Assembly (NCBI GenBank): GCA_002441265.1
Contig: DJVQ01000045.1
Span: 57,575 to 121,574 of the forward strand
Source of the DNA: Syntrophaceae bacterium UBA6252
GTDB lineage: Bacteria; Desulfobacterota; Syntrophia; Syntrophales; UBA6807
Length of the DNA: 64,000 bases
Reading direction: 5' to 3'
The translations under genes were made by a program, and so were the position numbers. A model generated the notes under the pieces. That model saw only the letters and a list, made by a program, of their open reading frames with translations, was not told the origin of the DNA and ran no database searches. Shown here one piece after another: positions 5,070 through 36,388 of this stretch (the stretch's first letter is position 1; each line of letters starts with the position of its first letter).

Positions 5070-6125
5070 ATGACTTCAAGAGAAGCAATGGGCGAGCGCA
5101 CGGGAAAGACAGCCCTGATCCTGGGCATCTCCGGCCAGGACGGGTCGTATCTTGCCGAATTTCTCCTGAAAAAGGGATACAGGGTCTTCGGCTGTTCCCG
5201 GGACGCCCAGATGAACCGTTTTGTCAATCTCGTCCATCTCGGAATCCTGAACCGGGTCCGGATCGAATCGGTTTCCATGAAGGATTTCAGGAGCGTCCTC
5301 CAGGTGCTCCGGAAAGTGCGGCCCGACGAAATCTACAATCTTGCCGGGCAGAGTTCCGTGGGGCTTTCCTTCGACCAGCCGCTGGAAACGTTTCAAAGCG
5401 TCAGCATCGCCACCCTGAACCTCCTCGAGGCGGTGAAGTACCTGAACGATCCGGTCAGGATCTACAATGCCGGATCCGGCGAGTGTTTCGGGAATGCGGG
5501 GAAAAAACCGGCGGACGAGACGACGCCTTTTCATCCCCGGAGCCCCTATGCCGTGGCCAAAGCGACGGCGTTCTGCCAGGTGGCCAACTACCGGGACGCT
5601 TACGGACTGTTCGCCTGCACCGGCCTCCTGTTCAACCACGAATCCCCCCTCCGGCCCCTCCGGTTCGTGACCCGGAAAATCGTGAACGCCGCCTGCCGCA
5701 TCGCAAAGGGCGAAGCGAGCCTGCTCGAACTGGGAAACATTGCCGTGGAGCGTGACTGGGGCTGGGCGCCGGAATATGTGGAGGCCATGTGGCTCATGCT
5801 GCAGCAGGATACTCCCGAGGACTACGTCATCGCCACGGGGGAAACCCGGAAGCTGGAGGACTTCATCCGCGAGGCCTTCGCGGCCGTGGGCCTGGATTGG
5901 CGGGAACATGTGAAGACGAACTCGTTTCTGATGAGGCCCACGGAGATCCTGGTGACCCGGGCCGATCCCGGGAAGGCGCACCGGAAGCTGGGGTGGAAGG
6001 CCCGCTACAGGATGGAGGACGTGGTACGAATGATGGCTGAAGAAGAACGAAAGACCCTGGAGCGGCCCCCGAAGAAAAGGCGGGGGAATGGAAAGCCGAC
6101 TGCGCCGAGGGGCGCCGTTTCATGA
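5070..6125 (+). CDS. gmd: GDP-mannose 4,6-dehydratase (copy 1); start may be ATG 5088
   Basis: GISGQDGSYLA, YNLAGQSSV, PRSPYAVAK, FNHESP, FVTRKI and RDWGWA motifs. Confidence 0.9.
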   Translation: MTSREAMGERTGKTALILGISGQDGSYLAEFLLKKGYRVFGCSRDAQMNRFVNLVHLGILNRVRIESVSMKDFRSVLQVLRKVRPDEIYNLAGQSSVGLSFDQPLETFQSVSIATLNLLEAVKYLNDPVRIYNAGSGECFGNAGKKPADETTPFHPRSPYAVAKATAFCQVANYRDAYGLFACTGLLFNHESPLRPLRFVTRKIVNAACRIAKGEASLLELGNIAVERDWGWAPEYVEAMWLMLQQDTPEDYVIATGETRKLEDFIREAFAAVGLDWREHVKTNSFLMRPTEILVTRADPGKAHRKLGWKARYRMEDVVRMMAEEERKTLERPPKKRRGNGKPTAPRGAVS

Positions 6126-7093
6126 AAAAAGCTCTGATATTCGGAATCTCCGGCCAGGATGGATCGTACCTTGCCCGATTCCTGCTGGGAAAAGGGTATG
6201 AGGTGATCGGCACTTCCAGGGACGCCCAGATTGCGGGTTTTGAAAACCTCGAACGGCTCGGTATACGGGAAAAGCTCCTTCTGGAGTCGGTTTCCCTGGT
6301 CGATTTCCGGAGCGTGCTCCAGGTGGTGGACCGGTATAAGCCCGACGAGATCTACAATCTGGCGGGCCAGGGGTCGGTGGGCCTCTCCTTCGAACATCCC
6401 GTGGAGACATTCCAGAGCCTGGGCATCGGTACGCTCAATCTGCTCGAGGTCATCCGGTTTCTGGGGGCGCCGATCCGGTTTTACCATGCCGGTTCCAGCG
6501 AATGCTTCGGGGACACCGGGGGAACGGCGGCCGATGAATCCACGCCGTTTCACCCGAGGAGTCCCTATGGCGTCGCCAAGGCCGCGGGTTTCTGGCAGAC
6601 GGTCAACTACCGGGAGGCTTACGGGATTTTCGCCTGTTCGGGCATTCTCTTCAACCACGAATCGCCTTTCCGTCCGGAGCGGTTCGTCACCCGGAAGGTC
6701 GTGAACGCCGCCTGCCGCATCGCCAGGGGAAGCCGGGAAAAACTCCTCCTTGGAAACATCGCCGTGGAGCGTGACTGGGGCTGGGCGCCGGAATACGTGG
6801 AAGCCATGTGGCTGATGCTCCGGCGAGAAATTCCAGGCGATTACGTCATCGCCACCGGTGAAAGCCACACCCTCGAGGATTTCGTCGATGCGGTCTTTTC
6901 CTGTCTCGACCTTGACTGGCGGGAACATGTGGAGATCGGCAGGGAGTTGTTCAGACCGGCGGACATCCTGAGGATGAAGGCCGACCCGGGCAAGGCCTGG
7001 CGCGAACTGGGCTGGGAAGCGAGGTCCAGGATGCGGGACGTGGCGAGAAGAATGGTGAGGGCCGAGTGGGATCCCGACAACGGCTCCTTATGA
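6122..7093 (+). CDS. gmd: GDP-mannose 4,6-dehydratase (copy 2)
   Basis: Same motif set (GISGQDGSYLA, PRSPYGVAK, FNHESP, RDWGWA); ATGA overlap with copy 1. Confidence 0.9.
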   Translation: MKKALIFGISGQDGSYLARFLLGKGYEVIGTSRDAQIAGFENLERLGIREKLLLESVSLVDFRSVLQVVDRYKPDEIYNLAGQGSVGLSFEHPVETFQSLGIGTLNLLEVIRFLGAPIRFYHAGSSECFGDTGGTAADESTPFHPRSPYGVAKAAGFWQTVNYREAYGIFACSGILFNHESPFRPERFVTRKVVNAACRIARGSREKLLLGNIAVERDWGWAPEYVEAMWLMLRREIPGDYVIATGESHTLEDFVDAVFSCLDLDWREHVEIGRELFRPADILRMKADPGKAWRELGWEARSRMRDVARRMVRAEWDPDNGSL

Positions 7094-7114
7094 CGATCCG
7101 GGTTGCGCGACACG

Positions 7115-9427
7115 ATGACGGACCGTAGAATATTCTCCGCCCTTGCGGTGTTTCTCGTCATCGCCGCGGCGTTCGCCGTTTACGGGGAAATCTTCGATTA
7201 TCCCTTCGTTTTCGACGACGCTCCCAATATCCTGGAGAACGCGCGGATCCGTTCCCTGTCGAGCTTCCTGGGCTCGAGGGTCCTGTCCCAGGGCCGGGAG
7301 GCGGTCAATTTCACCTTCGCTGTGAACTACGCCCTCGGAGGATACGAAGTTTCCGGTTATCATCTCGGCAACATCCTCATTCATATCCTCAACGGCATTG
7401 TGGTCTATTTCCTGTCCCTCCTCCTTCTCCGGGGGATGGCCGGCAGGTCCGGCCCCGCCGGGGACGGCGGAAACGGCTCCGCCCGGCTCGTTTCTCTCTT
7501 CACGGCCCTTCTTTTCGTGGTCCACCCCCTTCAGACCCAGGCGGTGACTTACACGATCCAGCGGTACACCTCCATGGCGGCCCTGTTTTACATGGCCTCC
7601 ATCCTTTTTTACCTGGCGGCCCGGCTCCTTCAGAAAGGGGAACCGGCGACGGCGGTCCTTGAAACGGTGCGGGAGAATGGACCCGCCGACACCGGAAGGC
7701 CCGCCGGGAAGAAGAAAAAACAGAAGAAGCGGAATACGGCTCCCGCCGGGTACGGCACCGCTCCGGGACCGGCTGCGGAGAAGGCTGTCGCCGGTCCCCT
7801 TCCCGGACGGAGGACGGCATTCCGGATCGTTCTTTTCTTCGTTCTTTCCGTCCTGTGCGCCTTCGTGGCCTTTCTGTGCAAGGAAAACACGCTCAGCCTT
7901 CCCGTCGCCATCCTCCTGGTGGAATATTTCGCCGTCGACCGCTCCCGGGCGGGCTGGAAGAGGAAGATTCCCTGGATCGTCGCGGTCGTGGCCGCCGTGG
8001 CGGTCTTCTACCTTTATGTCTCCGGGCTGTTCCGGCCCGGATTCTCGTGGGGGCGGTTCCTTGCGGAACTGGACAGCCGAAGCCGGGAAACGGACGCCGT
8101 CGGCCGCTGGTCGTATCTGTTCACCCAGTTCAACGTCCTTGTCACCTATCTCCGGCTTTTCTTTTTTCCGGTGAACCAGAACCTGGATTACATGTATCCT
8201 TTCCGGACGGGCTTTTTCGGCGGGACGACGCCTTTTGCCTTTGCGTTTCTCCTTTCCCTCGCCGCCGGCGCTTTCCTGGTCCGCAGGAGATGGCCCGTTC
8301 TCTCCTTCGGCGTTTTCTGGTTCTTTGTCACCCTTTCGGTGGAATCGACGATCATCCCCATCCGGGACGCCCTCTTCGAGCACCGGATGTACCTCCCCCT
8401 TTTCGGGTGTGCCCTGGCCTTCGCCTGGACGGTGTTCCGGCTCTTCGGGAACCGGAAGGCGCTGGCGGCGGGCCTGTGCGTCATCCTCGTGGCGGCCCTC
8501 GGGACGGCATCCTTCCTGCGAAACCAGGTCTGGCGGGATGAAACCGTCCTGTGGTCCGACGTGGTCCGGAAAAACCCGGGAAGCGTCCGGGGGCTCAATT
8601 ACCTGGGGACTTTCCAGATGGAGAGGGGGCGACTGGAAGAGGCGGTGGCCCTTCTGGAGTGGGCTCTCCGTGTGAGCGCCGCCGGCGGAGACGCCATCAC
8701 CCATTACAACCTCGCCAATGTCCTGAAAAAAAAGGGAGACGGAACGGGTGCCGAGCGGCATTACCGCGAAGCCCTCCGGATGAATCCGGGGTATGCCGAC
8801 GCATATGTCAACCTGGGGAACCTTTATCTGGAACGGGGTGACGGGGGACAGGCCCTTGCCATGTATGAAAAGGCCCTGAAAGTCGACCGGTTCAGCAGGG
8901 GGGCCCGATACGGTCTTGCGTCGCTGCATCTCCGGAAGGGGGATTACAGGGGAGCGGCGGAGCAATTCAAGGTCCTCGTCAAGGCGGACCCGGCCGATGC
9001 GGCGGCCCGGAACAACCTGGCAAGCGCCTTCCTGGAAATGGGGGATGAGGCCGCCGCCGTCCGGGAACTGAATGAGGCCCTCCGGCTGAGACCGGATTAC
9101 GGAGAGGCCCGCTTCAACCTGGCGGTCATTTACGAGAGAAAGGGCGAATACGACCGGGCCCTTTCCCATTACGAAAAGGCGGCCGCATCGGGGGACCGTG
9201 CGGTCCCCGTGGCGTATTTGCGCGCCGCCAGGATCCATGCCATGAAGAAGGAAACGGACCAGGCCCTCCGCGGACTCGAGAGGGCCTTTGCGTCGGGCTT
9301 CCGGAACTGGAGCGCCGTCGAGTCCGACGAAGCGTTTGCGTCCCTCCGGTCTTTGGAACAATACCGGGAGCTTGGCGCCAGATACTCAAAACCCTCCCGG
9401 GAGAAGGAGAAAGAGTCTTCCCGATGA
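7115..9427 (+). CDS. TMTC-like (GT-C) membrane glycosyltransferase with C-terminal TPR array, paralogue 1
   Basis: FVFDD, YHLGNILIH, HPLQTQAVTYTIQR, KE, EHRMYLP and RNQVWRD motifs characteristic of TMTC1-4-like proteins; TPR repeats (YNLANVL, YVNLGNL, NNLASAF, FNLAVIY). ATG 7115 preferred over TTG 7103. Confidence 0.8.
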   Translation: MTDRRIFSALAVFLVIAAAFAVYGEIFDYPFVFDDAPNILENARIRSLSSFLGSRVLSQGREAVNFTFAVNYALGGYEVSGYHLGNILIHILNGIVVYFLSLLLLRGMAGRSGPAGDGGNGSARLVSLFTALLFVVHPLQTQAVTYTIQRYTSMAALFYMASILFYLAARLLQKGEPATAVLETVRENGPADTGRPAGKKKKQKKRNTAPAGYGTAPGPAAEKAVAGPLPGRRTAFRIVLFFVLSVLCAFVAFLCKENTLSLPVAILLVEYFAVDRSRAGWKRKIPWIVAVVAAVAVFYLYVSGLFRPGFSWGRFLAELDSRSRETDAVGRWSYLFTQFNVLVTYLRLFFFPVNQNLDYMYPFRTGFFGGTTPFAFAFLLSLAAGAFLVRRRWPVLSFGVFWFFVTLSVESTIIPIRDALFEHRMYLPLFGCALAFAWTVFRLFGNRKALAAGLCVILVAALGTASFLRNQVWRDETVLWSDVVRKNPGSVRGLNYLGTFQMERGRLEEAVALLEWALRVSAAGGDAITHYNLANVLKKKGDGTGAERHYREALRMNPGYADAYVNLGNLYLERGDGGQALAMYEKALKVDRFSRGARYGLASLHLRKGDYRGAAEQFKVLVKADPADAAARNNLASAFLEMGDEAAAVRELNEALRLRPDYGEARFNLAVIYERKGEYDRALSHYEKAAASGDRAVPVAYLRAARIHAMKKETDQALRGLERAFASGFRNWSAVESDEAFASLRSLEQYRELGARYSKPSREKEKESSR

Positions 9428-11958
9428 ACCGTTCCTCCATGACAAGAATCGTGACGGGCATTCCTGCGTGCCTGGCCCTCATTGCCCTCGTCTCTGTCTG
9501 CGTGTACGGGAGAATCTTCGATTTCCCCTTCGTTTTCGACAGCATCGACCACCTTGTGAACAGGTCCTTCATCAAAAATCTCCTCAGGGATTTCCAATGG
9601 AACCTCCTTCTCAGCCCGAGGAACCTGGTCAACCTGACCTTCTCCCTGAATTATCGGATCGGAGGACTCGACGTTTTCGGTTATCACCTGGTGAACCTGG
9701 CCGTTCACGTCCTGAACGGTTTCGTGGTGTTCTTTCTCTCCGGAGCCATTCTGGAGAGGCTTTCAGCCTCTTCGCCGGGGCCCGGGGGGGAAGAGGAAGT
9801 CGTCACGCACAGGCTTGTCGCCCTCTTCGCCGCCCTCATTTTCGTCGCCCACCCCGTCCAGACACAGGCGGTGACCTACACGATCCAGCGCTATACCTCC
9901 ATGGCCGCGCTCTTCTACCTCTCGTCCCTCCTCTTCTACCTCAAGGCGCGGACTCCCGGTCCGGAAGGGGTGGGGCGCATCGTTTTTCTGTATTACGGGC
10001 TCTTCGCCCTTTTGGCGGCCCTCGCCTTTCTGTCCAAGCAGAATGCGGCGAGCCTGCCGCTGGCGGTGCTGGCCGTGGAATATTTCTTCGTCGACCGGAC
10101 GGGAAAAGGCTGGCTCAGGAAAATACCCTGGATCGCATTGGGGTTCGCCCTGTGGACGGCCTTCATTTTCCTGTCCCTCGGAGTGTTCGACTCCCTCTCC
10201 GGGGAAGGCGTCCTGGAGGACCTTGCCCGGAGGAGCATGGAAACGGAGCTTGTCAGCCGGTGGACCTATCTCCTCACCCAGTTCAACGTCCTCGTGGAAT
10301 ACCTCCGCTTGCTTGTTTTTCCCACCGGCCAGTCCGTCGACTACATCTACCCCTTCCACCGGACGTTCTTCTCCGGCTGGACGCCCCTGGCCTTTCTTTT
10401 TCTCCTCGCCCTCCTGGCGGCGGCGGTCGTTCTGAGGAAGAGGCTTACGCTCTTCTCGTTCGGGGTGTTCTGGTACTTCATCACCCTGTCGGTGGAGTCG
10501 AGCGTTTTTCCCATCCGGGATGCCCTCTTCGAACACCGCCTCTACCTTCCCCTGTTCGGGTTCGCCGTCGCCCTCTCCGACGGGTTGTTCCGAATCTTCC
10601 GGTGGAAGAGAGTCCCGGCCGTCGTTCTCCTGGCGGTTATCGTCGCCGCCCTTGCCGTCACCGCCCATGTTCGGAACGAGGTCTGGCGGGACGGGATAAC
10701 CCTGTGGACGGACGTCATCGAGAAAAATCCCAGGAATGCGCGGGCATGGAACAATCTCGCCACGGTCCTCGCAGACGCGGGCAGGCTGGAGGAAGCGGAA
10801 GAGGACCTGGAAAAAGCATTCAGGATCAAGCCGGGTTATGAACTCGCCCGGATCAATCTGGGATTCGTCCTCCTGAAGAGGGACAGGCCCGCGCAGGCAA
10901 GGGAGGTCTTCCTGTCGGTCCTGGAGAAATACCCTTCCGAACTCCGTACCCGGATGGGTCTGGGGGAAGCCCTCCGGAAGGAGGGACGGCTTGAGGAGGC
11001 GGCGGCGCAATTCGAGGAGGTCCTCCGGCTGGACCCGACCGAGGAGAAAGCCGGGGTGTTCCTTGCCGAAATCCAGTCAGCCCGGGGGGAGACGGGAAAG
11101 GCGGAAAAAAAGCTTGCCGACTTCATGAACAAGGATTCCGGGGACCCCTCCATCCTCACCGCCATGGGAAACCTGAAACGGCAGGCCGGCGACCGGGAAG
11201 GCGCCCTCCGGTATTATCGGGAGGCCGTCGGCGCCGATCCGCGGTCCGTCGAGGCCCGGCTCAACCTTGCCGCCATGATGACGGAGGAAAAACGCTATGA
11301 AGACGCCGAGAAGCTCCTTGCCGAGGTGATCCGGATCGATCCCGGCCACAGCCGGGCGAGAAGCGCCCTCGGGGCGATCCTCCTGGTCCGGGGGAAGCTT
11401 CCGGAAGCACGCCGGGCGTTCGAGGAGGCCCTCCGTATCGACGGTGAGAACGGTGAGGCCCTCTTCAACCTCGCCGCCCTCGCCGAAGGGGAAGGGGATC
11501 TCGCCGCCGCGGCGGATTTGTACGGGAAGGCGCTGAAGGTGGATCCCCGGGACTGGGAGGCTTCCCAGAACCTCGGGGGGATCCTCATGGCCCGGGGGGA
11601 CCTCCGGGGCGCCCGGCAGCGGTTTGAAGCGTCCCTCGAAGTACGTCCCCGGAATGCCGTTCTTCAGAACCGCCTGGCCATCGTTCTTGCGAGAATGGGG
11701 GATTTCGACGGTGCCCGTGCCCGTTACGAGAAGGCGCAGGAAATCGATCCCGCCCTGAAGGCGGTCGTCCGGTACAACCTGGCCTGTCTCGAGTCCCTCC
11801 GGAACAGGAGGGAAGCCGCCTTCCTGCTGCTGGAAGAGGCCTTCCAGGCCGGGTACAGGAACTGCCGGAACGCCATGACGGACCCCGACCTGGAAAACAT
11901 CAGGAGCTACCCCGGTTTCCCCGGCCTGATGAAACGGTACTGCGGCGGGGGATCCTGA
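9424..11958 (+). CDS. TMTC-like (GT-C) membrane protein with long TPR array, paralogue 2
   Basis: FVFDS, YHLVNLAVH, HPVQTQAVTYTIQR, KQ, EHRLYLP and RNEVWRD motifs; about 10 TPRs and a terminal YNLAC...DPDLENIR cap; ATGA overlap with paralogue 1. Confidence 0.8.
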   Translation: MNRSSMTRIVTGIPACLALIALVSVCVYGRIFDFPFVFDSIDHLVNRSFIKNLLRDFQWNLLLSPRNLVNLTFSLNYRIGGLDVFGYHLVNLAVHVLNGFVVFFLSGAILERLSASSPGPGGEEEVVTHRLVALFAALIFVAHPVQTQAVTYTIQRYTSMAALFYLSSLLFYLKARTPGPEGVGRIVFLYYGLFALLAALAFLSKQNAASLPLAVLAVEYFFVDRTGKGWLRKIPWIALGFALWTAFIFLSLGVFDSLSGEGVLEDLARRSMETELVSRWTYLLTQFNVLVEYLRLLVFPTGQSVDYIYPFHRTFFSGWTPLAFLFLLALLAAAVVLRKRLTLFSFGVFWYFITLSVESSVFPIRDALFEHRLYLPLFGFAVALSDGLFRIFRWKRVPAVVLLAVIVAALAVTAHVRNEVWRDGITLWTDVIEKNPRNARAWNNLATVLADAGRLEEAEEDLEKAFRIKPGYELARINLGFVLLKRDRPAQAREVFLSVLEKYPSELRTRMGLGEALRKEGRLEEAAAQFEEVLRLDPTEEKAGVFLAEIQSARGETGKAEKKLADFMNKDSGDPSILTAMGNLKRQAGDREGALRYYREAVGADPRSVEARLNLAAMMTEEKRYEDAEKLLAEVIRIDPGHSRARSALGAILLVRGKLPEARRAFEEALRIDGENGEALFNLAALAEGEGDLAAAADLYGKALKVDPRDWEASQNLGGILMARGDLRGARQRFEASLEVRPRNAVLQNRLAIVLARMGDFDGARARYEKAQEIDPALKAVVRYNLACLESLRNRREAAFLLLEEAFQAGYRNCRNAMTDPDLENIRSYPGFPGLMKRYCGGGS

Positions 11959-12055: not shown

Positions 12056-12235
12056 TCGTTCGGATTGCCCGCCGGCTCATCAGCGTTGGTCATATATGAC
12101 CCGCAGCGTTCCATCGTAGCCAGAAATGCCGGTCTTAAAGGAGGCCGGCACCCCCCCGGAGCCGCCGAAACGCCGGATCGCAGGATGCATCTGACAAACG
12201 ATTGGCCTGGCATGATCGTTGCTTCATATGAGGTC

Positions 12236-13696
12236 ATGAGAACGCGGTCGATCCACAAGGGCATCCTTTTTTTCATCCTTTTCATCCTCATGGCGGGGAC
12301 GGCATGGGGTGCCGTTGCGCCTTCAGAAGAGGAGCAGGCCCTTCTCGACCGAATCAATGCCGCCCGCCAGGCCCCCTTCGCTGCGGCCGCCGCGATCGGC
12401 ATCGATCCGCAGCAGCTTGCGGCGGCGCGGCCGGAGCTTCTGGAACTGCCGGAAGAAGGAATGTCCCAGCTCAAGTGGACGTCACTCCTTTCGGATACCG
12501 CGAAAGCCCACAACGAAGACATGCTCGCCCGGGGATACGTGGACCGTGTGAACCCCGAGGGACTGACGGCGGGGGATCGGGCGGCCGCGGCCGGCTACTG
12601 GGCCGTCTCCGTGGGCGAGTCCATCGGCCTGGTCGGTTTTGCCAACTTTCTTGCCCCCGATGCGGCCGTTTCGATTCTTTTCGAGAACATGCTCCGGGAA
12701 GAACTCCTGAATCCGTCGGATGAAAAGTGGAATCTTCTGAATCCCGGCTTTTCCGAGGTAGGCATCGCTGTCGGAACGGGAGTCCTCGAGTACGGGGGCT
12801 ACCTGTTCAACGTGTACATCGCCGTATGCGATTTCGGGGAGCCCTGCCGGGCAGGCTCCGAGGAGGAACTTTTCCTCGCGCTGGTGAACCAGGCCCGCTC
12901 GAATCCCGAGGGATTCCTCCTGTCCGTGGGTCTTTCGGCGGACCGCCTCATGCCGGACCTTCAGGAAGGGCTGGATGCCTTTTATGCCGGCATGCCCCCC
13001 CTCTTTCCCGTCAAAACCCTTTTCCAGGCGGCCAGGGCCCATGCCGTGGACATGCTCTCCGCCGGCTACTTCGCCGCCGATTCCCTCGACGGCAGGACCC
13101 CCATGGACCGGATCCTGGAAGCGGGGTACGAGGAAGCCGTGGAATCCGGCGAGACGAGGGGCCTTCTGGCCCTTTGCGGGGACCGGGTCCCCGCGGAACA
13201 GGTGAAGGCTTTCTTCCAGCGTTCGGCGATCGTCGAGTTGACCCGGACGGCGCCGGAAGACCGGCTGATCTTCAATCCTTCGCTGCGCGAAGCGGGCGTC
13301 GGGTTTGCCGAAGGGGATTCGGAGAGCCTCGGCGGCATCTGCGGGGACCATGTCGGCCTCCTGGTCGCAGAGTATGGCACGAGAATTGCAATAGAATCGG
13401 GCATTGTCGGTGTCGTTTTTTCCGATCTCGACGGGAACGGTCTTCTCGATCCCGGCGAGGCTCTTTCAGGCGTTGAGGTTACCATCTCCGGTTCAGACGT
13501 TACCCAGGTCCTCCTTACGGGGGAAGGGGGCGGCTTCCAGATCGTCCTTCCCGAGGGGCCGTACGAGGTTTCGGCGGCGGGAACGGACCCGGTGGAAAGC
13601 GTTGAACTGACGGTTCCCGGAAACGGGGAAAGCATTTTCATTCCCCTTTCCGTGACGGTCCCGGTCGATGAGATCGCGGCGGAAGAGAACGGGTAA
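12236..13696 (+). CDS. Secreted protein with two CAP (SCP) domains and a C-terminal SdrD-B/carboxypeptidase-regulatory-like beta domain
   Basis: GAGG RBS then ATG 12236 with a signal peptide (MRTRSIHKGILFFILFILMAGTAWG-A). Two repeats LLDRINAARQ/FLALVNQARS...AKAHNEDM/ARAHAVDM...NLLNPGFSEVGIA/LIFNPSLREAGVG. C-terminal GVVFSDLDGNGLLDPGEALSGVEV. Confidence 0.8.
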   Translation: MRTRSIHKGILFFILFILMAGTAWGAVAPSEEEQALLDRINAARQAPFAAAAAIGIDPQQLAAARPELLELPEEGMSQLKWTSLLSDTAKAHNEDMLARGYVDRVNPEGLTAGDRAAAAGYWAVSVGESIGLVGFANFLAPDAAVSILFENMLREELLNPSDEKWNLLNPGFSEVGIAVGTGVLEYGGYLFNVYIAVCDFGEPCRAGSEEELFLALVNQARSNPEGFLLSVGLSADRLMPDLQEGLDAFYAGMPPLFPVKTLFQAARAHAVDMLSAGYFAADSLDGRTPMDRILEAGYEEAVESGETRGLLALCGDRVPAEQVKAFFQRSAIVELTRTAPEDRLIFNPSLREAGVGFAEGDSESLGGICGDHVGLLVAEYGTRIAIESGIVGVVFSDLDGNGLLDPGEALSGVEVTISGSDVTQVLLTGEGGGFQIVLPEGPYEVSAAGTDPVESVELTVPGNGESIFIPLSVTVPVDEIAAEENG

Positions 13697-13703
13697 AAAG
13701 GTC

Positions 13704-13732
13704 TTGACAATTACGAAGAATTTCATTAGCGT
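13704..13732 (+). promoter_or_regulatory. Sigma70-like promoter upstream of the Cys-rich secreted protein
   Basis: Perfect -35 TTGACA (13704-13709), 17-bp spacer, -10 TAGCGT (13727-13732) in an AT-rich intergenic stretch. Confidence 0.6.
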
Positions 13733-13868
13733 TATCGCAATTTGACTTCTGGACTATAAAAAAGGAAAGGAGGGGGGTGCGGAAAGAAAGGATACAGCGG
13801 AATTCTCTGAGAGGTTTTGAATTTAGGGAAATATGTCAGGAAAACACTAAGAATTGGAGGAGAAAGAC

Positions 13869-14984
13869 ATGAAGAAAAGAATGGTATTCACGGCTCTTCT
13901 GGCGATGGTCCTCGCACTGTCCTTCGCCTGGACGGCCATGGCGGCGGATGACGCCTGCGTCGACTGCGGCAAGTGCCCTCTGCGCCAGATCGAGTGCTGT
14001 GTCAGCAGCGGCCAGGCAACGCCCTACACGAGCTATTTCGACTATGAAACGGGCTACGGCTACTGCGCCACGAGCGCCTATGACAAAGACTGCAAGGTCA
14101 TCTTCGACCTTTGTAACTGCGATTCCCCGAACACGAACTTCGTGTCCGGGAAGAAGATCGGCATCCGGATGGAAATCCTGACCTCCGGCGTTTACTGGAG
14201 CGATGTGTATCCCTCCATGATGGCCTACACGTCAGCCGCGCTTGCCTGCGCCGGCACGTCGACGACCTACAGCTATACGTGGACCGACATCGATTACTAT
14301 GACAAGGCCGGCAGCCCGACCTCGCCGGTTTCGATCAGCAACACCTCCTGCGAAGTTCCCTGCGACGCGATGGCAGTTGAACTCCAGAGCGCCAACGAAA
14401 CGGGATACGAGATTCCCGCCGAAATGGTCACCAATCAGGTGAAGTACTGGTGGATCGATGTTCCCCCGATGTTCCTCAATGATTCGGAAATCGAGGGCCG
14501 GGAAGGCGAAACCGTTACGATCGAAGTGTGCCTCCAGGGCGCCAGCGGCGGGATCTGCCGTGAGTGCAACGACATCTGCTGCTGCACCATCGACGTCGGC
14601 ACGCTGTGCTGCGAGTCTGGCGACCAGACCTGCATCTACTTCCCCTATGTCGTGACCGGAATCCAGCCCTGGTGGACTGGTGTTGCGATCGCGAACTACG
14701 GCGGAACCTCTTCGCTCGACCTGACGCTGACCCTGACCGACGCCACGGGCGCGAAGTTCACCTGGGTGAAGACCGGTCACACGGCGGCAATGTGGACCTT
14801 CATCCTCGACTCCGTCCTGGCCAACTTCAGTGGCACGCCGGCAGCCGGTGCGGCAATGCTGAAGGTTGAATCTGATCAGGGCTGGATCGACGGCTACAGC
14901 TTCCTCACCGACGGCACCTTCGGTGGTAGCACGCTGGCGAGAGGCTGCTGCACGATCTGCTTCGACTACAGCAAGCTTGACTAA
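13869..14984 (+). CDS. Cys-rich secreted protein, candidate major surface-layer protein
   Basis: GGAGGAG RBS, ATG 13869, Sec-pathway signal peptide MKKRMVFTALLAMVLALSFAWTAMA. 24 Cys counted; acidic and Thr/Ser-rich; C-terminal IYFPYVVTGIQPWWTGVAIAN domain; own promoter and terminator. Confidence 0.7.
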   Translation: MKKRMVFTALLAMVLALSFAWTAMAADDACVDCGKCPLRQIECCVSSGQATPYTSYFDYETGYGYCATSAYDKDCKVIFDLCNCDSPNTNFVSGKKIGIRMEILTSGVYWSDVYPSMMAYTSAALACAGTSTTYSYTWTDIDYYDKAGSPTSPVSISNTSCEVPCDAMAVELQSANETGYEIPAEMVTNQVKYWWIDVPPMFLNDSEIEGREGETVTIEVCLQGASGGICRECNDICCCTIDVGTLCCESGDQTCIYFPYVVTGIQPWWTGVAIANYGGTSSLDLTLTLTDATGAKFTWVKTGHTAAMWTFILDSVLANFSGTPAAGAAMLKVESDQGWIDGYSFLTDGTFGGSTLARGCCTICFDYSKLD

Positions 14985-15027
14985 TTACTGACCGCAACGA
15001 CACAAGCAAAGGTCAGTGAATGAATGG

Positions 15028-15067
15028 GAATGGGCAGGGTCTTCGAAAGGCCCTGCCCATTCTGTTT
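15028..15067 (+). terminator. Intrinsic terminator-like hairpin after the Cys-rich gene
   Basis: GAATGGGCAGGG-TCTTCGAAAGG-CCCTGCCCATTC followed by TGTTT. Confidence 0.7.
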
Positions 15068-15120: not shown

Positions 15121-15810
15121 ATGACCAGAACAGCGACCGCATTCTTCGGGGGAATCCTGATCGTTTTGATCGCGGCCTTTGCGGCATGGGGCGCGGAGGA
15201 AGGGACCGGCCCGTTCATGCCGTCATGGGAACCCGGGCAGACGTGGACGCTGCGGCTTGAAGCCGCGAAGTGGGAAAGCGGACAGGAAAACGGGAACGGC
15301 ACCGGAGCCATCCTCCTGCGGTACCGGGTCCGGGGAATGGAGGAAGCGGGAGGGGAGACCTGCTGGGCCGTGGAAGTTTCCGGGGAAGGGGCAGGCCTGT
15401 CTCTCGAGGCGACCCTTTTTTACCGGGCAGCGGATTTCTCCCTTTCCATCGCGGAAGTGACCCGAACCCGGATGGGGGAGACCGGCAGGGAGACATGGAC
15501 ATTTCCCAGGGAGGCGCCGGCGGTTGCGAAATTCGCGGACATTCCGCTGGAAACCCCCGTGTTTCCCCTCACGGCCCCGTCGAGAAAAACCTTCGAAATG
15601 GAAAGGCGGATCGGGAACGACCTTGCCTTTCGGGAGAAAGTGGTTCAGTCCGTGGATGCCGCCCCGGGGAACGGCCGGGCACCGTCCTATGAAGTGATCT
15701 GCAAGAACAAGGACGGGATCGTGCTGTTCGCCCAGCGCTGGGAAAAGGGCAAGCCCTGGGCCGTCGAGGGACATTCGGGGGACCGGAAATACAGGATGGA
15801 GGAGCCATGA
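15121..15810 (+). CDS. Secreted hypothetical protein (beta-rich)
   Basis: Signal-peptide-like N-terminus MTRTATAFFGGILIVLIAAFAAWG-A from ATG 15121; ATGA overlap with the next gene. Confidence 0.7.
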   Translation: MTRTATAFFGGILIVLIAAFAAWGAEEGTGPFMPSWEPGQTWTLRLEAAKWESGQENGNGTGAILLRYRVRGMEEAGGETCWAVEVSGEGAGLSLEATLFYRAADFSLSIAEVTRTRMGETGRETWTFPREAPAVAKFADIPLETPVFPLTAPSRKTFEMERRIGNDLAFREKVVQSVDAAPGNGRAPSYEVICKNKDGIVLFAQRWEKGKPWAVEGHSGDRKYRMEEP

Positions 15811-18230
15811 AAAGAGCGGGGGCGGTTTTTTTCCTGATTTCGTTTTTCCTCATCTTGAACGTCGGGGCGGGACAAGCGGACGCGCTGACCTATCAGGCGG
15901 ACAAACTTCCCTGGTCGGGGTGGTGGTGGCCCTTCGCACAGGGGGGGCTCGTTACGGGAACGGGTTACAACGGCCACCCGGCACCCCTGGAGAAGTACGA
16001 TCTCGTGACGTCCGGCGTGGCCAAGGGCCCGGCGACCCAGTACGGGCTTTCAGCTTATTACAACGCACTGGCCAAATCCTGGGAAGGGATGTGCTTCTGC
16101 TGGGCGGCGGCGGCCATGCTGGAGGAGGAGCCGGTTCACCGCGGGATTTACGGCGGCCTTCTCTTCGATGTGGGAGACAAGAAAGGCATCCTCACGGCGG
16201 TGTACGACGGCACCCTGTACAACTTCTACCCCATCGACGGTCCCGAGGATTTCCAGGAAATCCTGGAAACGTTCATCGGCAACCGGCGGTCCATGATCAT
16301 GATGGATCTCGGCACGGACGGGGAAATCTGGAACTATCCCGTGTACAAGTACGACATCGATTACACGGAGGATGGGAACACCAGGCATTACACGGTGACC
16401 ATCTATTTCGCCAGCGACACGGTGTCCCCCGACTATGTGGGATTGAGGGAAAGCATACGGACGTATCACTACTATTATGAACTTGACGGGACAGTCATCA
16501 CCGGAAGCGGCTGGGAGTCGGGAAGCGAATCGGAGCATCCGGTGAGCGCCGCCGACCCGTACGGCACCGCCTGCACCGATCCCGGACTGGATTACAGCCA
16601 TGCACGGGAAATCGTCTACACCGACGACGATCCTTACGAACCGAACGACGACTTTGACGCCGCCGCTTCCGTCACCAGCGGGGGGTACCTTCTCATCGCC
16701 GCGAACAACGACTACTTCCAGGTGGATCTCCGGACCGGCGACCGGCTCAGGATCCGGGTGGACATGGAGTCGCCCGGTGACGTGACGGTGAACGTCTACG
16801 ATCCCGCGCGGGCCAAGATCGGCATTGTCTGTGACGGATGTACGACCACAGCGGAGGCCCTCATGGCCGGAGCGTACGTGATCGAGGTCATCCCCGCCGA
16901 TCCTTCCGCGGAACCGGCCTATGAACTCTACCTGGAGCAGGCGCTTTCCTTCCGGGGCGTGTTCCCCAACGATCCTTCGGGCATCTGGGCCGGCGGTGTC
17001 ACGCTGACCGGCGACGGGGAGGCCCTGGGAAGGGTGATCCTCTGCCAGACCGACGAAGAAGGGAACCCCGAGCGAAGCTACAGCACCGAGGTGGAAGGAA
17101 GCTGCCTGGAGGGCCTTCTGGAGGCCTTCGGCCTTACCCCTTCCCTCGGAGGCTATATCCGCGTCGATTCGGACCGTCCCCTGGCGGGCATGTACACGAC
17201 GACGGACGGAAGCGACCTGCTCATGGGCTGCAATCTCGTCCCCCTCTCCCGGGCGTATCGGGAGATCGTCTTTCCGCACATCGCCTCCGTCTCCGGGTGG
17301 AACACCTATTTCGGATTCATGAACATGGGGGATTCCTCGGAGGAACTCGATCTCGTGGTGTACGACTCCTCCGGAGGCACCGTCACGAGCGAGCGCTGGG
17401 TGCTTGACCCGGGGGAAAAGGTGGAGGACGACCGCTTTACGGGTCTCTTTCCTTCCCGGGGTGCGTCCGTGTCGATTTCGACGCGGAGCGGGAATGACAC
17501 CCTTGTCGGGTACCTGGTCTACCAGCCCCCGCTTGCGACGTCGAAAGCGAGGGCCCTTCTTGCCGTGGAAGGCCCGCCGGCGTCGGAACTGCACCTCCCA
17601 CACGTGGCCGCAACGGGAGCGTGGTGGACGGGCATCTCCGTCATGAACGGGGGGACCGGTTCCGCCGATGTCGGCTTTTCCGCCTATGACAGCGAGGGGA
17701 CCCTCCTCGGTACGGTGTACCGCACCCTGGCGGCGAAGCAGACCCTCGTGTCCATGGCGGCCTACCTGTTCACGGGGGTGTTGCCGGAACGGATCGCGTC
17801 GCTGAAGATTTCAGGCGGGACGGGAGCGGAGCTCACCGGGCTCGTGGTCTACGGATCCCGGGACGGTCAGGCCCTGTCGGCCGCGCCCATGGCTTCGTCT
17901 TTCCCCGGGACCCTGTACGCCCCCTGGTGGTATGTTTCCGACACCTGGTGGGAGGGCCTCGCGGTGGTCCAGAGGGGAACGTCGCCGGTGACGGTCGTTT
18001 TCGATCTCATGGATGACACCGGAACCGTTCTCCGGCGGGTGACCAGGCTGCTGGAACCGGAGGAACGGATCATTGCCATGGCGGAAACCCTCTTCGGGAC
18101 CCCGGTGCCCGATGCCGCGAAAATCGTGCGTGTTTACGGAGGGGAAGCCCCCCTGAGCGGGATCTGCATCTTCGGAGCTTGTGACGGAAAACGTCTTTGC
18201 GGGGATCTCCTGCCCGGGATCGTCCCCTGA
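15807..18230 (+). CDS. Secreted multidomain protein: transglutaminase-elicitor-like N-domain, PPC-like domain, 3-4 repeats of a ~108-aa surface domain
   Basis: Signal peptide; PWSGWWWP, PLEKYD, WEGMCFCWAAAA, DKKGILT and IWNYPVY resemble the TGase_elicitor family; DDPYEPNDD...DYFQV resembles a pre-peptidase C-terminal domain; repeats at 17265, 17589 and 17913 (324-nt period). Confidence 0.65.
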   Translation: MKRAGAVFFLISFFLILNVGAGQADALTYQADKLPWSGWWWPFAQGGLVTGTGYNGHPAPLEKYDLVTSGVAKGPATQYGLSAYYNALAKSWEGMCFCWAAAAMLEEEPVHRGIYGGLLFDVGDKKGILTAVYDGTLYNFYPIDGPEDFQEILETFIGNRRSMIMMDLGTDGEIWNYPVYKYDIDYTEDGNTRHYTVTIYFASDTVSPDYVGLRESIRTYHYYYELDGTVITGSGWESGSESEHPVSAADPYGTACTDPGLDYSHAREIVYTDDDPYEPNDDFDAAASVTSGGYLLIAANNDYFQVDLRTGDRLRIRVDMESPGDVTVNVYDPARAKIGIVCDGCTTTAEALMAGAYVIEVIPADPSAEPAYELYLEQALSFRGVFPNDPSGIWAGGVTLTGDGEALGRVILCQTDEEGNPERSYSTEVEGSCLEGLLEAFGLTPSLGGYIRVDSDRPLAGMYTTTDGSDLLMGCNLVPLSRAYREIVFPHIASVSGWNTYFGFMNMGDSSEELDLVVYDSSGGTVTSERWVLDPGEKVEDDRFTGLFPSRGASVSISTRSGNDTLVGYLVYQPPLATSKARALLAVEGPPASELHLPHVAATGAWWTGISVMNGGTGSADVGFSAYDSEGTLLGTVYRTLAAKQTLVSMAAYLFTGVLPERIASLKISGGTGAELTGLVVYGSRDGQALSAAPMASSFPGTLYAPWWYVSDTWWEGLAVVQRGTSPVTVVFDLMDDTGTVLRRVTRLLEPEERIIAMAETLFGTPVPDAAKIVRVYGGEAPLSGICIFGACDGKRLCGDLLPGIVP

Positions 18231-18331: not shown

Positions 18332-18769
18332 ATGAAAGTTCGATGGCTTGCAGTGTCTCTTGCGTGCCTCTTTTTCTGTTCAGCCTGTGCGCACCTCTCC
18401 CTGAAATCGCCGACGGAGGAATCCCTGAGGGAAACCGTTGACAAGGTGTGGATGTCCAAAACGCAGCGGAAATGGGGTCCCGTCTATGACCAGGCAAACG
18501 AGGAATACAAGGCCCAGGTCGAAAGAGAGGATTTCATCCGGAGGGCCAATCTGAACGTGGTTTCCTATTCCATCCGGGAAATCCGGATGACCGGACCCGG
18601 CAAGGCCGCCGTGACGCTGGATTTCTCCGTGAACTTCACGGGGACGAGTTTTTCGGGAACGACCGAGGAAGAGTGGCTCTGGGAAAAGGGGGAGTGGCGG
18701 GTGAACATGATGCCCCAGTTGAACACCCCCTTCGGTTCCCTCGCGAAGCCGCCGGCGCCGAAGAAATGA
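18332..18769 (+). CDS. Lipoprotein, NTF2-like fold possible
   Basis: GGAGG RBS at 18321; MKVRWLAVSLACLFFCSA-C lipobox-like signal; C-terminal EEWLWEKGEWRV. Confidence 0.65.
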   Translation: MKVRWLAVSLACLFFCSACAHLSLKSPTEESLRETVDKVWMSKTQRKWGPVYDQANEEYKAQVEREDFIRRANLNVVSYSIREIRMTGPGKAAVTLDFSVNFTGTSFSGTTEEEWLWEKGEWRVNMMPQLNTPFGSLAKPPAPKK

Positions 18770-33198: not shown

Positions 33199-34899
33199 AT
33201 GAAGAGGGTGGTCAAAAAGATCCCGATGTGGTCATTTATGGCCTTGGCGCTTGCCATTATCCTTACGCTGTCCATGGCAAAGCCGGCGGCCGCGGGGTGA
33301 GGCACGTGCTACTTTACGCTGGCCGTGACTGTCAGCCCGATTGCTATAGCAGGAAATGTGGAAGTTACCCCCGTAACGGAAAAACTGCAGAAGGTGACAT
33401 GCTACAATGAGGAGAGTGGCTCGGTTGAAGGCAAATGCAACTACGTTACGGAAGGGAGTATCTCCTATTATCTGACCGCCACCGCGAACGAGGGATACAC
33501 GTTCTCACGATGGGAGGGAGAAGTCTCGAGCACCAACCAGACGGTTACCATCACGCTCCCGGCAACGGCGGACTCGACGACGAAAAACTTCAAGGCGATT
33601 TTTGTGCAAAGGACCCCGACGCCCCCCACTGCGAACGCCGGGGCCGACCAGATAGTCGAATCCGGCACTCTGGTCACCCTCGACGGATCGGGATCGTCCG
33701 ACAGCGACGGGACCATCGTTTCGTACAGTTGGGAGCAGCTCTCGGGGACAGGAGTCGCCCTTTCCGACAACAACGCCCAGAAACCCACCTTCACGGCGCC
33801 CAATGTGGCGGCGGGTTCGACGGCGGCCCTGACCTTCCGTCTCCGCGTGTATGACGATGAGATGATGTCCGGAACGGACACCGTGACCATCACCGTGGGG
33901 TCGTCCAACGAGGCCCCCACTGCGAACGCCGGGGCGGACCAGTCGGTTCAGACGGGAACGACGGTCACCCTGAACGGGACCGGGTCGTCCGATCCCGAGG
34001 GAGGCGCGCTTACCTATGCCTGGACCCAGCTCTCCGGGACCGAGGTCACGTTGTCCGACCCGACTGCGTCGAGTCCCGCCTTCACCGCTCCCGATGAGGC
34101 GGGGACCCTCGTGTTCCAGCTCACTGTCACAGACAGTTACCAGGCTTCGGACACGGACACGGTCACGATCACCGTCTCGGTTCCGAGTGCATCGGCGGCG
34201 TACAGGCTCTACTACCCCCACGTGGTGAGCCAGCTTTCCGCCGGCGGCGACAAGGTCTGGGAGACGGACATCATCATCGTCTATACCGGCACGGAGGAAT
34301 CCTTCACGGGGACCCTCCTGGCCTACGACGCCTCGGGCGCGGAAGTCGGCACGGCCGTCGGGGTGACCCTGGCCCCCCTGGGAAGGATCGTCTACCCGGT
34401 GGGTGCGACCTTCGAATCGCCGGAGACGATCCGGTACATCGTTCTCGAGTCGGAACAGGACGGCGCCGTGGGCTATGAGCTGCTCGGCGTGGACGGCCTG
34501 GCCCGGACGACCTTCGAGGCGTACCAGGTTTCCGGGGATGCGGAATACCAGCCCCCCATCGCCCAGAGCCGGGCTTCGTCCGCCCTTCCCTCTTCGTCGG
34601 GCGTGTTCATGACGCTGGACCAGGCGGGCTGGACCGGCATCGTCTTCGTGAATCCCGGCGACGCCGAGGTCACGATCGAACTCAAAGCCTACAATGACGA
34701 AGGCGAGGAGATCGCGACCGATTCCTTCGACCTGGCGGCGGGAGGCTATCGCTCCGGGTTCGCTTCCGGGTTCTTCCTGGAGAAAGGGGCCCTTGAAGGC
34801 GCCACCCACATCACCTATTCGGCGGGCGGCGACGTGATCGCCGTCCAGTTTACCGGCGACTTCAGCGGCGCCATGCTGGATTCGCTTCCCGGCGCCTGA
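33199..34899 (+). CDS. Secreted PKD/K319-like repeat protein with in-frame TGA at codon 34 (putative selenocysteine, UxxC); alternatively a nonsense pseudogene
   Basis: GAGGAGG RBS then ATG 33199, in frame with ORF 33325. Reads MKRVVKKIPMWSFMALALAIILTLSMAKPAAAG-TGA-GTCYFTL...; then an InlB-B-like repeat (LTATANEGYTFSRWEG), two ANAGADQ PKD/K319-like repeats and two shared surface domains. Confidence 0.75.
33301..33350 (+). promoter_or_regulatory. Candidate bacterial SECIS hairpin
   Basis: GCTGGC(33318-23)-CGTGACT-GTCAGC(33331-36): 6-bp stem with one G-U pair; loop starts 23 nt after the TGA and has G in position 2; a possible lower GCTA/TAGC pairing. Confidence 0.55.
33623..34180 (+). repeat. 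Two intragenic PKD/K319-like domain repeats (291-nt period)
   Basis: CCCCCACTGCGAACGCCGGGGC(C/G)GACCAG occurs at ~33623 and ~33914. Confidence 0.75.
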
Positions 34900-35311: not shown

Positions 35312-36366
35312 TGGGGCATTTCGGCATCGGAACGGAAATCCAGAAATACATCAACACCGGCCAGCCGGTCTGTTTTTTCTTCCTTCTTTCCGGATTCATC
35401 CTCGCCTGCGTATACCCCTCCCTGGACAGGGGACGGGACATCATGAAATTCATGGTATCCCGGCTTGCCCGGATCTGGCCGCTTCATATCCTGACATTTT
35501 TCGTGGTGGTCCTGTTCGCGCCGGGGGGGCGCCCCCCGATTTCCGTGGCCGCATCGAATTTCCTCATGGTTCACGGCTGGATACCGGTGAAGGAATACTT
35601 CTTCTCCGTCAACTGGCTTTCGTGGGCCGTGTCGGCCGAGTGGGCCCTGTATCTTTTTTTCCCCGTTCTCCTTTACCGGCTGAACCGCACCTGGCACGTC
35701 AAGCTCATCCTTTCCTTTTTTCTTGCCCTCCTTCTCATTGTCCTGTGCAGGGTCTACGATCTTCCCCCCCTGGGCGGGGAAGGGAAACCGGCCGCCCTGG
35801 GACTGGTGTACATCAGCCCCCTGGCGAGGCTCTTCGAGTTCACCCTGGGCATGTCCCTGGGGCTCCTGTATCTCCGGCGGAGGAGAACGGCGCCCGGGAA
35901 TACGCGGCGGGGAACCCTCCTGGAAACCGGGGTCTGCCTGTTTGCGATCGCCGCGATCCTGGGCACCTATCCCATCCTGAAGACCCTTTACCCCCTTCTC
36001 GGTTACGGGGCGGCGAAATGGGTGGAATCCAGCGGATGGCCCTCCCTCTTCTACGCCCCCCTGATCCTGGTCATGGCCTTCGAAAGGGGGAGGATTTCGC
36101 ACTGGCTGGGGAACGGAATTCTCGTGAAACTCGGAGAACTCAGCTTTTCGATTTATCTCCTTCATCAGATCGGGATCCGTTTTTATGTTTCCCGGTTCGG
36201 GACGGCGGCCGATCGCTTCGATGCCGCCGCGTACGGCATCTTCTGGGTTCTGCTCCTTCTTGCGGCATTTTTTGTGCAAGTCGCCGTGGAGAAGCCCTGC
36301 AGAAAAGCCATCATCCGATGGTTCGACCGTTTCCGGGGCGGGCAGGAAACGGTCCCCGTCCGGTGA
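35218..36366 (+). CDS. Acyltransferase_3 (OafA-like) membrane O-acyltransferase
   Basis: SLTALRFFAAAVIVLHH, VCFFFLLSGFIL, RLARIWPLH, WAVSAEWALYL, LGELSFSIYLLH and VEKP motifs. Confidence 0.9.
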   Translation: MTGSTGNGRIAIPSLTALRFFAAAVIVLHHSVGHFGIGTEIQKYINTGQPVCFFFLLSGFILACVYPSLDRGRDIMKFMVSRLARIWPLHILTFFVVVLFAPGGRPPISVAASNFLMVHGWIPVKEYFFSVNWLSWAVSAEWALYLFFPVLLYRLNRTWHVKLILSFFLALLLIVLCRVYDLPPLGGEGKPAALGLVYISPLARLFEFTLGMSLGLLYLRRRRTAPGNTRRGTLLETGVCLFAIAAILGTYPILKTLYPLLGYGAAKWVESSGWPSLFYAPLILVMAFERGRISHWLGNGILVKLGELSFSIYLLHQIGIRFYVSRFGTAADRFDAAAYGIFWVLLLLAAFFVQVAVEKPCRKAIIRWFDRFRGGQETVPVR

Positions 36367-36388
36367 CGGGAGGAGGAAGGAACCCATC

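Follow-up and report, generated by a model that had tools for sequence, protein, structure and literature searches.

A cysteine-rich exported protein of a Syntrophaceae bacterium as a probable S-layer subunit with a predicted four-fold ASRAH ring

The gene, its signals and its family

The DNA analysed here, referred to as the window, is a stretch of 64,000 nucleotides (nt) from Syntrophaceae bacterium UBA6252 (assembly GCA_002441265.1, contig DJVQ01000045.1, positions 57,575 to 121,574 of the forward strand). It carries a gene for an exported protein with 24 cysteines (the 24-Cys protein), which an earlier prediction made from the sequence alone (the original prediction) had singled out as a candidate surface-layer (S-layer) protein. 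As argued below, the protein is probably the major subunit of a type II-secreted, disulfide-stabilised S-layer of the four-fold p4 type, in which the C-terminal ASRAH module is predicted to form the ring. The gene and its signals are as follows, with positions counted in the window.

13704..13732, plus strand: internal sigma-70-type promoter, TTGACA-17 nt-TAGCGT (sequence and family conservation; not listed by the promoter scanner)
13767..13780, plus strand: second, upstream Shine-Dalgarno (SD)-like element, STAB-SD-like, of putative function (duplex energy and family conservation)
13856..13862, plus strand: ribosome-binding site GGAGGAG (sequence)
13869..14984, plus strand: gene for the exported 24-Cys protein of 371 residues, likely the major S-layer subunit
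13869..13943, plus strand: Sec-type signal peptide, residues 1-25 (from sequence; predicted local distance difference test, pLDDT, <50 for residues 1-26)
13944..14612, plus strand: Cys-rich beta-sandwich domain, residues 26-248, with 20 Cys; putative outward or lattice-arm domain (model pLDDT 80; Cys pairs)
14613..14951, plus strand: ASRAH-fold module, residues 249-361; predicted four-fold hub and putative glycan anchor (structure matches; tetramer prediction)
15027..15063, plus strand: 17-bp terminator-like hairpin with a short U-tail (folding energy; hairpins at family loci)

The composition given in the original prediction was confirmed: 24 Cys lie within 346 mature residues (6.9%), all of the listed Cys motifs are present, and the 371-residue protein, which has a single His, contains no CxxCH. 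The signal peptide could be read off as MKKR followed by a hydrophobic core, and A25 is invariant among the aligned relatives. By Cys fraction the protein ranks fourth among the 2130 predicted proteins of at least 150 residues in the genome, and its Cys count is the highest among 153 heuristically predicted secreted proteins, the runner-up having 11. Cys/TGA exchange, for which a check had been proposed, was not seen, the genome matches being free of in-frame TGA.

Word-indexed searches returned 28 and 29 relatives, and a profile run against representatives of 50%-identity clusters matched 557 at E ≤ 1e-3, 377 at 1e-10 and 163 at 1e-30. The family is large and divergent, and its members are beta-rich, acidic and rich in Thr, Gly, Ser, Ala and Asp; searches of Pfam, NCBIfam and PDB sequences gave no match for the 24-Cys protein or for the family, and a whole-protein Atlas search gave a lead only (0.83). 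Relatives with titles come from Syntrophaceae, Desulfobacterales and other deltaproteobacteria, and the sources of module carriers name Syntrophales. The family, which has no Pfam or NCBIfam name, is patchy in Desulfobacterota-type anaerobes, being found in 2 of 10 genomes of the host family, 11 of 301 of the class and 11 of 401 of the phylum (host counted). In two cases the gene is split by a frameshift, which may be an assembly error or an inactivation (L007:1432-2784 in genome G009 and L016:1275-2430 in G241); a frameshifted copy was noted in one genome of the host's genus. Elsewhere, two full-length but divergent copies share a rearranged cassette in a single genome (L003:1218-2636 and 9875-11281).

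As the original prediction had proposed, the gene possesses a TTGACA promoter of its own, beginning at 13704 and followed 17 nt downstream by a weak -10 element (TAGCGT), together with a purine-rich leader (about 130 nt, 70% purine) and a strong ribosome-binding site (GGAGGAG at 13856-13862). Of 14 family loci, 12 have TTGAC(A/T) upstream of the gene, with TA after a spacing of 17 in nine and of 18 in three. The second SD-like element lies at -102 from the start codon here and at -89 to -127 in 13 of the 14 loci, the start codon of the fourteenth having been mis-picked. Its duplex with the anti-SD sequence has an energy of -12.7 kcal/mol or stronger in all 14 loci; among background leaders, for which a shorter window and rough starts were used, 61 of 634 reach -13 kcal/mol or stronger. 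According to the accessible text of PMC4113751, cry3A of Bacillus thuringiensis, which encodes a mass-produced structural protein, likewise carries a non-initiating SD-like element (STAB-SD) about 100 nt upstream, and its known mechanism is the blocking of RNase J1; the present host differs in that no RNase J (TIGR00649) was found in its genome. Small open reading frames (ORFs) downstream of the second SD-like element are not conserved across family loci. A leader peptide was rejected because the GTG ORF that overlaps the start varies from 0 to 85 codons among 14 loci and so is not conserved; a leader RNA structure was rejected as well (folding z -0.4).

The predicted terminator was recovered as the hairpin at 15027-15063, the folded 66 nt having -35.7 kcal/mol (z -5.6), a stability matched by none of 200 shuffled sequences; the terminator scanner missed it because its U-tail is short. 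Hairpins occur 3' of the gene in all 15 family loci with downstream DNA, a count made without a shuffle control. The gene had been described as a stand-alone unit, which holds for its 3' end; the 5' end is not closed, however, because the promoter begins 7 nt past the stop of the upstream gene with no terminator in between.

Four studies have RNA libraries with contigs that cover the 24-Cys gene. In run X1, contig depth is about 350-737 on this gene, 3-35 on the listed contigs of flanking genes and 3-23 on those of a ribosomal-protein operon, and in run X5 a contig of depth 140 spans the 24-Cys gene and the upstream gene, which encodes a CAP-domain protein. In both runs the depth on the 24-Cys gene exceeds that on the flanks and on the ribosomal-protein operon; contig depth, which cannot rank genes and here comes from runs selected using the 24-Cys gene, gives in this way a hint of high abundance of the protein. 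The thresholds of likeness for contigs differed (85 and 90), and runs X8 and X10 barely contain the organism.

The ASRAH module, its ring and its cassette

The AlphaFold2 model consists of two beta domains (pLDDT 80; predicted template-modelling score 0.63), and the C-terminal module modelled alone has a pLDDT of 92. Residues 249-361 match TM1070 (PDB 1NC7) with Z 11.8, a root-mean-square deviation (rmsd) of 2.6 and 103 aligned residues, the next unrelated row having Z 6.8, and match ASRT (PDB 2II7) with Z 9.1, rmsd 3.0 and 94 aligned residues. The top Foldseek match of the module is also of the ASRAH type (template-modelling score 0.66-0.68, E 1.1e-3), and at the level of sequence the module profile matches PDB entries only at E ≥ 0.24, with ASRT at 1.3. 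In the accessible text of PMC2739507 the ASRAH superfamily is defined by a Trp and a strand-end Asn; among 126 full-length homologues, kept from 178 proteins by a filter on coverage and length, W268 is present in 96 (an aromatic residue in 122) and N276 in 101. The C-terminal 110 residues have, as modelled, the eight-stranded beta-sandwich of the ASRAH (TM1070/ASRT) fold. The N-terminal domain, which was compared as part of the whole-protein model, is not claimed as a new fold: its best structural match, with pilin or adhesin immunoglobulin (Ig)-like domains, has Z 6.8, rmsd 3.6 and 131 aligned residues, below the distinctive level of Z 8, and Foldseek on the whole model returned generic tandem Ig-like matches (template-modelling score ≤ 0.25).

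Oligomer prediction, which had been proposed as a check, was carried out with four copies of residues 249-366 and gave a closed ring, with a score of 0.92 as compared with 0.14 for the best of three controls; the mark applied to this score is reached by 20 of 30 solved homo-pairs and by 1 of 23 single chains. The runs share at least 91% of contacts, with a partner pLDDT of at least 88. Each copy meets two neighbours by different faces, head-to-tail, and the opposite copy at residues 351/353, and P259 and Y260, conserved in 121 and 124 of the 126 homologues, pack on A273, D341, G342 and Y343 in the predicted interface. The module is thus predicted to self-associate about a planar four-fold axis. 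Tetramers, dyads and tetrads of ASRAH have been reported, and sugar binding has been predicted for them in clefts formed partly from the subunit interface (PMC2739507, accessible text).

Eleven ORFs of the host genome carry the module (10 besides the 24-Cys gene), always in 1, 2 or 4 copies, and several of the accessory proteins score as DUF5719 (PF18986). Among 52 other proteins, a set biased towards multi-copy proteins, there are four copies in 29, two in 15, three in 7 (mostly with weak scores) and one in 1. Two small secreted proteins of the host with a single module (G000:C16:534-1229 and C32:51354-51914) are possible stand-alone tetramers. Four genes adjoin the 24-Cys gene in a cassette, and a further module carrier lies elsewhere in the window.

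12185..13696, plus strand: secreted double CAP-domain protein with an SdrD-B-like tail, start approximate (Pfam CAP; cassette gene)
15121..15810, plus strand: secreted protein of 229 residues without a Pfam or NCBIfam match (cassette; syntenic in 7 of 8 loci examined)
15807..18230, plus strand: transglutaminase-elicitor-like Cys domain with four tandem ASRAH modules (PF16683 over cut-off; cassette)
18332..18769, plus strand: predicted lipoprotein of 145 residues (cassette; syntenic in 7 of 8 loci; conserved Cys)
33325..34899, plus strand: PKD-domain protein with two ASRAH modules, a putative accessory of the same layer (module match)

The order of the cassette is CAP protein, 24-Cys gene, 229-residue secreted protein, transglutaminase-like protein and lipoprotein. 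Of 24 distinct loci with the module and sufficient DNA 3' of the gene, 23 have the transglutaminase-like gene downstream; duplicates, one module-less fusion and five loci truncated at contig ends were left out. A CAP gene lies directly upstream at 15 family loci; no CAP gene was found at the first copy of L003 or at L033, L034, L036, L037 and L041. The central slot of the cassette also holds longer forms (500-650 residues), which have other N-terminal parts and the same C-terminal module. The Cys of the transglutaminase-like neighbour is invariant in 30 of 30 ORFs of a redundant set, with a His next to it in some relatives only. Cross-linking by a GP42-type transglutaminase is unsupported for the protein encoded at 15807-18230, in which the CH motif is absent, and because the GP42-type His is Phe in this copy, no such role is claimed for it.

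The window as a whole is a glycan island, in which GDP-mannose dehydratases, Wzm/Wzt and many glycosyltransferases are encoded around the 24-Cys gene; it includes two tandem GDP-mannose 4,6-dehydratase-like genes (5070-7093) and an ORF of 1000 residues with a weak sulfatase-like domain (36185-39187). The 24-Cys protein had been proposed as an N-glycosylation target of this island, and the four N-x-S/T sequons named are indeed present, but their number does not exceed chance (1.8 expected, P(≥4) = 0.09). Their positions are retained in merely 3-18 of the 126 homologues, in which 372 sequons were observed and 357 expected. Since sequons are at the level of chance and no STT3/PglB was found in the host genome, the proposal is unsupported, and a PglB-type N-glycoprotein, with sequons neither enriched nor conserved, was rejected. 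Two tandem membrane proteins with C-terminal tetratricopeptide repeats (7103-11958), whose N-terminal halves have no Pfam or NCBIfam match, are candidate TMTC-type protein O-mannosyltransferases, and might provide an O-glycosylation route for the Ser/Thr-rich 24-Cys protein.

The same contig carries, about 50 kb upstream, a type II secretion cluster with GspD (TIGR02517, 427 bits, cut-off 351), GspF and GspK, and four of five relatives have a GspD orthologue on the contig of the family gene, 9-49 kb upstream of it. The 24-Cys protein thus has a signal peptide for export, a linked secretion cluster and a module common to other surface proteins, and is presumably anchored at the surface. After the type II cluster (L044:1207-17290, G000:C21:11207-27293) come genes for a sensor kinase, a sigma-54 regulator and a TonB-dependent receptor, and then another glycan island, which contains an additional Wzm-type permease and a gene with a caspase domain.

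The S-layer reading and its closest competitor

The S-layer assignment of the original prediction is favoured by the predicted four-fold ring, the shared module, the conserved cassette and the linked type II cluster; the lattice itself is presumed. In the mechanism proposed, the internal promoter, the long leader with its second SD-like element and the terminator would yield a large excess of mRNA inside an envelope island expressed at a low level. The protein would be exported by Sec, would then fold with about 12 disulfides, and would probably leave the cell in the folded state through the linked type II system. Outside, the ASRAH tetramers would serve as four-fold nodes of a p4-type lattice, and their rings would probably grip a surface glycan exported by Wzm/Wzt in the clefts between subunits. 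In the accessory proteins, two tandem ASRAH copies would make half a pseudo-tetramer and four a whole one, and these proteins might dock on the same glycan or on the lattice nodes, thereby displaying enzymes and adhesins.

Several points weigh against this reading. Neither Slr4 nor any other S-layer model matched the 24-Cys protein, and the family was found in just 2 of the 10 genomes of the host's own family. The strong preference for C-ending codons seen in the original prediction did not hold up (0.52, with 0.50 expected from amino-acid composition and 0.50-0.52 in two neighbour genes), and codon bias was discarded as an uninformative sign of expression, GroEL not being highly ranked either. 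The RNA evidence consists entirely of contigs and is subject to the limits stated above. The high tetramer score may stem from the resemblance of the module to TM1070/ASRT, whose tetramers have been solved; the mark for it was calibrated on two copies and holds roughly for four copies with a custom alignment, and the four-copy assembly was the only one tried. Finally, a tetramer is not a lattice.

The most serious competitor, unlikely in our estimation, is an abundant tetrameric surface lectin, adhesin or biofilm-matrix subunit that would be tethered to glycan through the ASRAH ring and form no crystalline lattice. The modelled contact is the four-fold one only, ASRAH has been proposed as a sugar binder (PMC2739507, accessible text), and the N-domain, which has pilin and adhesin Ig-like domains as its nearest folds (Z up to 6.8), also ends other secreted proteins that lack the ASRAH module. 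These adhesin matches, however, fall under the noise level of Z 8, and the presence of a separate promoter, a second SD-like element and a terminator for one gene within an accessory cassette, together with the way in which long and short forms replace each other in its slot, is more suggestive of a mass-produced coat subunit.

An S-layer of the kind proposed would have partial counterparts among known systems. Slr4 of Pseudoalteromonas tunicata (PF19526) shares the Sec signal peptide, the linkage to type II secretion and the p4 lattice, which is only predicted here, whereas the 24-Cys protein has 371 residues as against about 580, a different N-terminal domain and different hosts; the word cysteine is never used in the main text of the Slr4 paper (PMC7821379, as accessible). 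Membership in the Slr4 family was rejected, as its profile matched 0 of 20 family members and nothing in the genome at E ≤ 10. The slr4, npdA and vapA genes adjoin type II secretion clusters (PMC7821379, PMC10765051, accessible parts). NpdA and VapA, to which no sequence relation was found, though none was specifically sought, likewise represent an S-layer gene linked to a type II cluster in a diderm (PMC10765051, accessible part), whereas here the secretin lies 9-50 kb off across a glycan island. A survey of S-layers available as a preprint (10.1101/2024.05.28.596244) reports, in its accessible part, beta-helix lattices for Desulfobacterota and anchors that are common to non-S-layer proteins; its supplementary tables, which were outside the comparison, could hold a relative of the 24-Cys family. 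A weak bridge from the module to Slr4 is seen in protein P0227, in which the ASRAH module (970-1071) overlaps a match to Slr4 profile positions 269-308, the end of the profile, and in an Atlas cluster with 22% Slr4 at 0.91.

The ASRAH superfamily (TM1070, ASRT and DUF5719) has in common with the proteins described here the fold, the Trp/Asn signature, the tetramer, here predicted, and the dyad and tetrad forms of the accessories. De Souza et al. (2009, PMC2739507) describe three families, one of cytoplasmic solos, one of amidase fusions and one of actinobacterial lipoproteins; the accessible text of that paper mentions neither the fusion of a single exported copy with a Cys-rich sandwich nor any S-layer role. 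The module of the 24-Cys protein lacks the His/Cys ligand motif found in the ASRT family. In literature searches from whose scope most subscription papers were excluded, the family was not found in work on S-layers, Slr4, Syntrophus proteomics or ASRAH, no paper tying ASRAH or DUF5719 to S-layers was found, and none on DUF5719 itself.

In Clostridioides difficile (SlpA, CWB2 and Cwp84), an anchor module is common to the major S-layer subunit and its accessories, including a papain-like cysteine enzyme encoded nearby. The logic proposed here is alike; C. difficile differs in being Gram-positive and in having three-fold CWB2 repeats of an unrelated fold, as against the four-fold ASRAH. Anaerobic digestion and the turnover of carbon in sediments are driven by Desulfobacterota of the syntrophic and sulfate-reducer types, about whose outermost surface little is known. 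If the S-layer reading is true, it would add a disulfide-rich class unrelated to beta-helical S-layers, with hundreds of unnamed clusters, and would give the exported ASRAH/DUF5719 module a concrete job.

Cysteine pairing, oxidation and the metal alternative

The 126 homologues have a median of 19 mature Cys (range 9-31) and a median of 2 His, and CxxCH occurs in 2 of them. Over 33 variable columns (528 column pairs), Cys changes on the same branch were counted for 36/75 (15), 221/238 (10), 43/247 (10), 54/161 (8), 66/248 (8), 255/360 (7) and 30/239 (6), and the Cys at 44/165 co-occur within one clade. For 221/238, both Cys are present in 27 homologues and neither in 98, with one discordant case. 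Signals across pairs, at 36/43 and 36/247 (7 same-branch changes, phi <0.4), were treated as secondary, and the hypergeometric values for same-branch changes are rough estimates. The two CxxC motifs are not kept as units: in 10 cases C33 persists although C30 is lost together with C239, and in 20 cases C230 is retained despite the loss of C233. Disulfides rather than four-Cys metal sites are preferred because Cys were gained and lost in pairs across the homologues, and the pattern as read from the alignment favours disulfides between distant strands. The pairs suggested by covariation are 30-239, 36-75, 43-247, 66-248, 221-238 and 255-360, and elimination would leave 361-364, two pairs among 44/161/165/233 and three among 33/82/84/127/230/237. 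Of the disulfide- or metal-rich protein envisaged in the original prediction, the former version is thus favoured, except that the near-invariant C33, C82, C84, C127, C230 and C237 are not assignable by covariation because they are kept in 124-126 of the 126 homologues.

Other observations count against disulfides. C233 is present in 102 of 126 homologues and has no steady covarying partner; it may pair differently by clade or across subunits. An even Cys count is found in only 61 of the 126, and the rough secretome of the host shows no even excess (47 even and 65 odd counts). No match to DsbB, VKOR or DsbA models was found in the host genome, which is 100% complete by markers and has one DsbD/CcdA-like match. 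In the 20 other carrier genomes no DsbB or VKOR scored over the cut-off, and DsbA-like proteins were found in 7. According to the accessible part of PMC12453122, obligate anaerobes tend to keep Cys out of their exported proteins, though some possess DsbA and lack a partner for it. A probably abundant exported protein with about a dozen covarying Cys pairs and no detectable DsbB/VKOR would therefore point to an unrecognized oxidase or a metal-based alternative in a defined cassette.

A bolder version of the S-layer reading, possible but held tentatively, is that the family represents an undescribed Desulfobacterota class, in which the ASRAH tetramer would be both the p4 node and the plug for accessory enzymes with two or four repeats, and in which 9-12 disulfides would form without DsbB/VKOR. 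If so, the route of oxidative folding would be new to strict anaerobes and possibly encoded in the cassette itself (the CAP protein, the Cys-enzyme and the lipoprotein), and the unpartnered C233 would be available for cross-linking of subunits.

It is less probable still than the lectin or adhesin that C33, C82, C84, C127, C230 and C237, perhaps with C233, bind Zn, Fe or Ni in a structural or redox site, which would make the protein a surface metalloprotein with or without a lattice. The near-invariance of the six Cys, which places them beyond the reach of covariation, their CxC and CxxC spacings, the lack of DsbB or VKOR over the cut-off in all 21 carrier genomes and the odd Cys count of about half of the family would be consistent with such a site. 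A CxxC knuckle of the zinc-knuckle or rubredoxin type was nevertheless rejected, as C30/C33 and C230/C233 are separable and the variable Cys change in twos, not fours; His is scarce, and long-form relatives, as read from their sequences, appear to lack the C82, C84 and C237 positions. A multiheme cytochrome was rejected by the rarity of CxxCH. A secreted enzyme or electron-transfer protein, suggested only by the high Cys content and the presumably syntrophic hosts, is very improbable and largely excluded, given the lack of Pfam, NCBIfam and PDB sequence matches, of a heme motif and of a conserved His or catalytic set, the conserved positions being Cys, Gly, Pro and aromatic residues.

The Cys-rich N-domain is also found without the ASRAH module in other secreted proteins (L022:1-2190; P0104, P0107, P0111, P0146 and P0154). 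Several of these N-domain-only proteins end in a short, hydrophobic tail rich in Pro-Trp/Leu, which may be a sorting signal.

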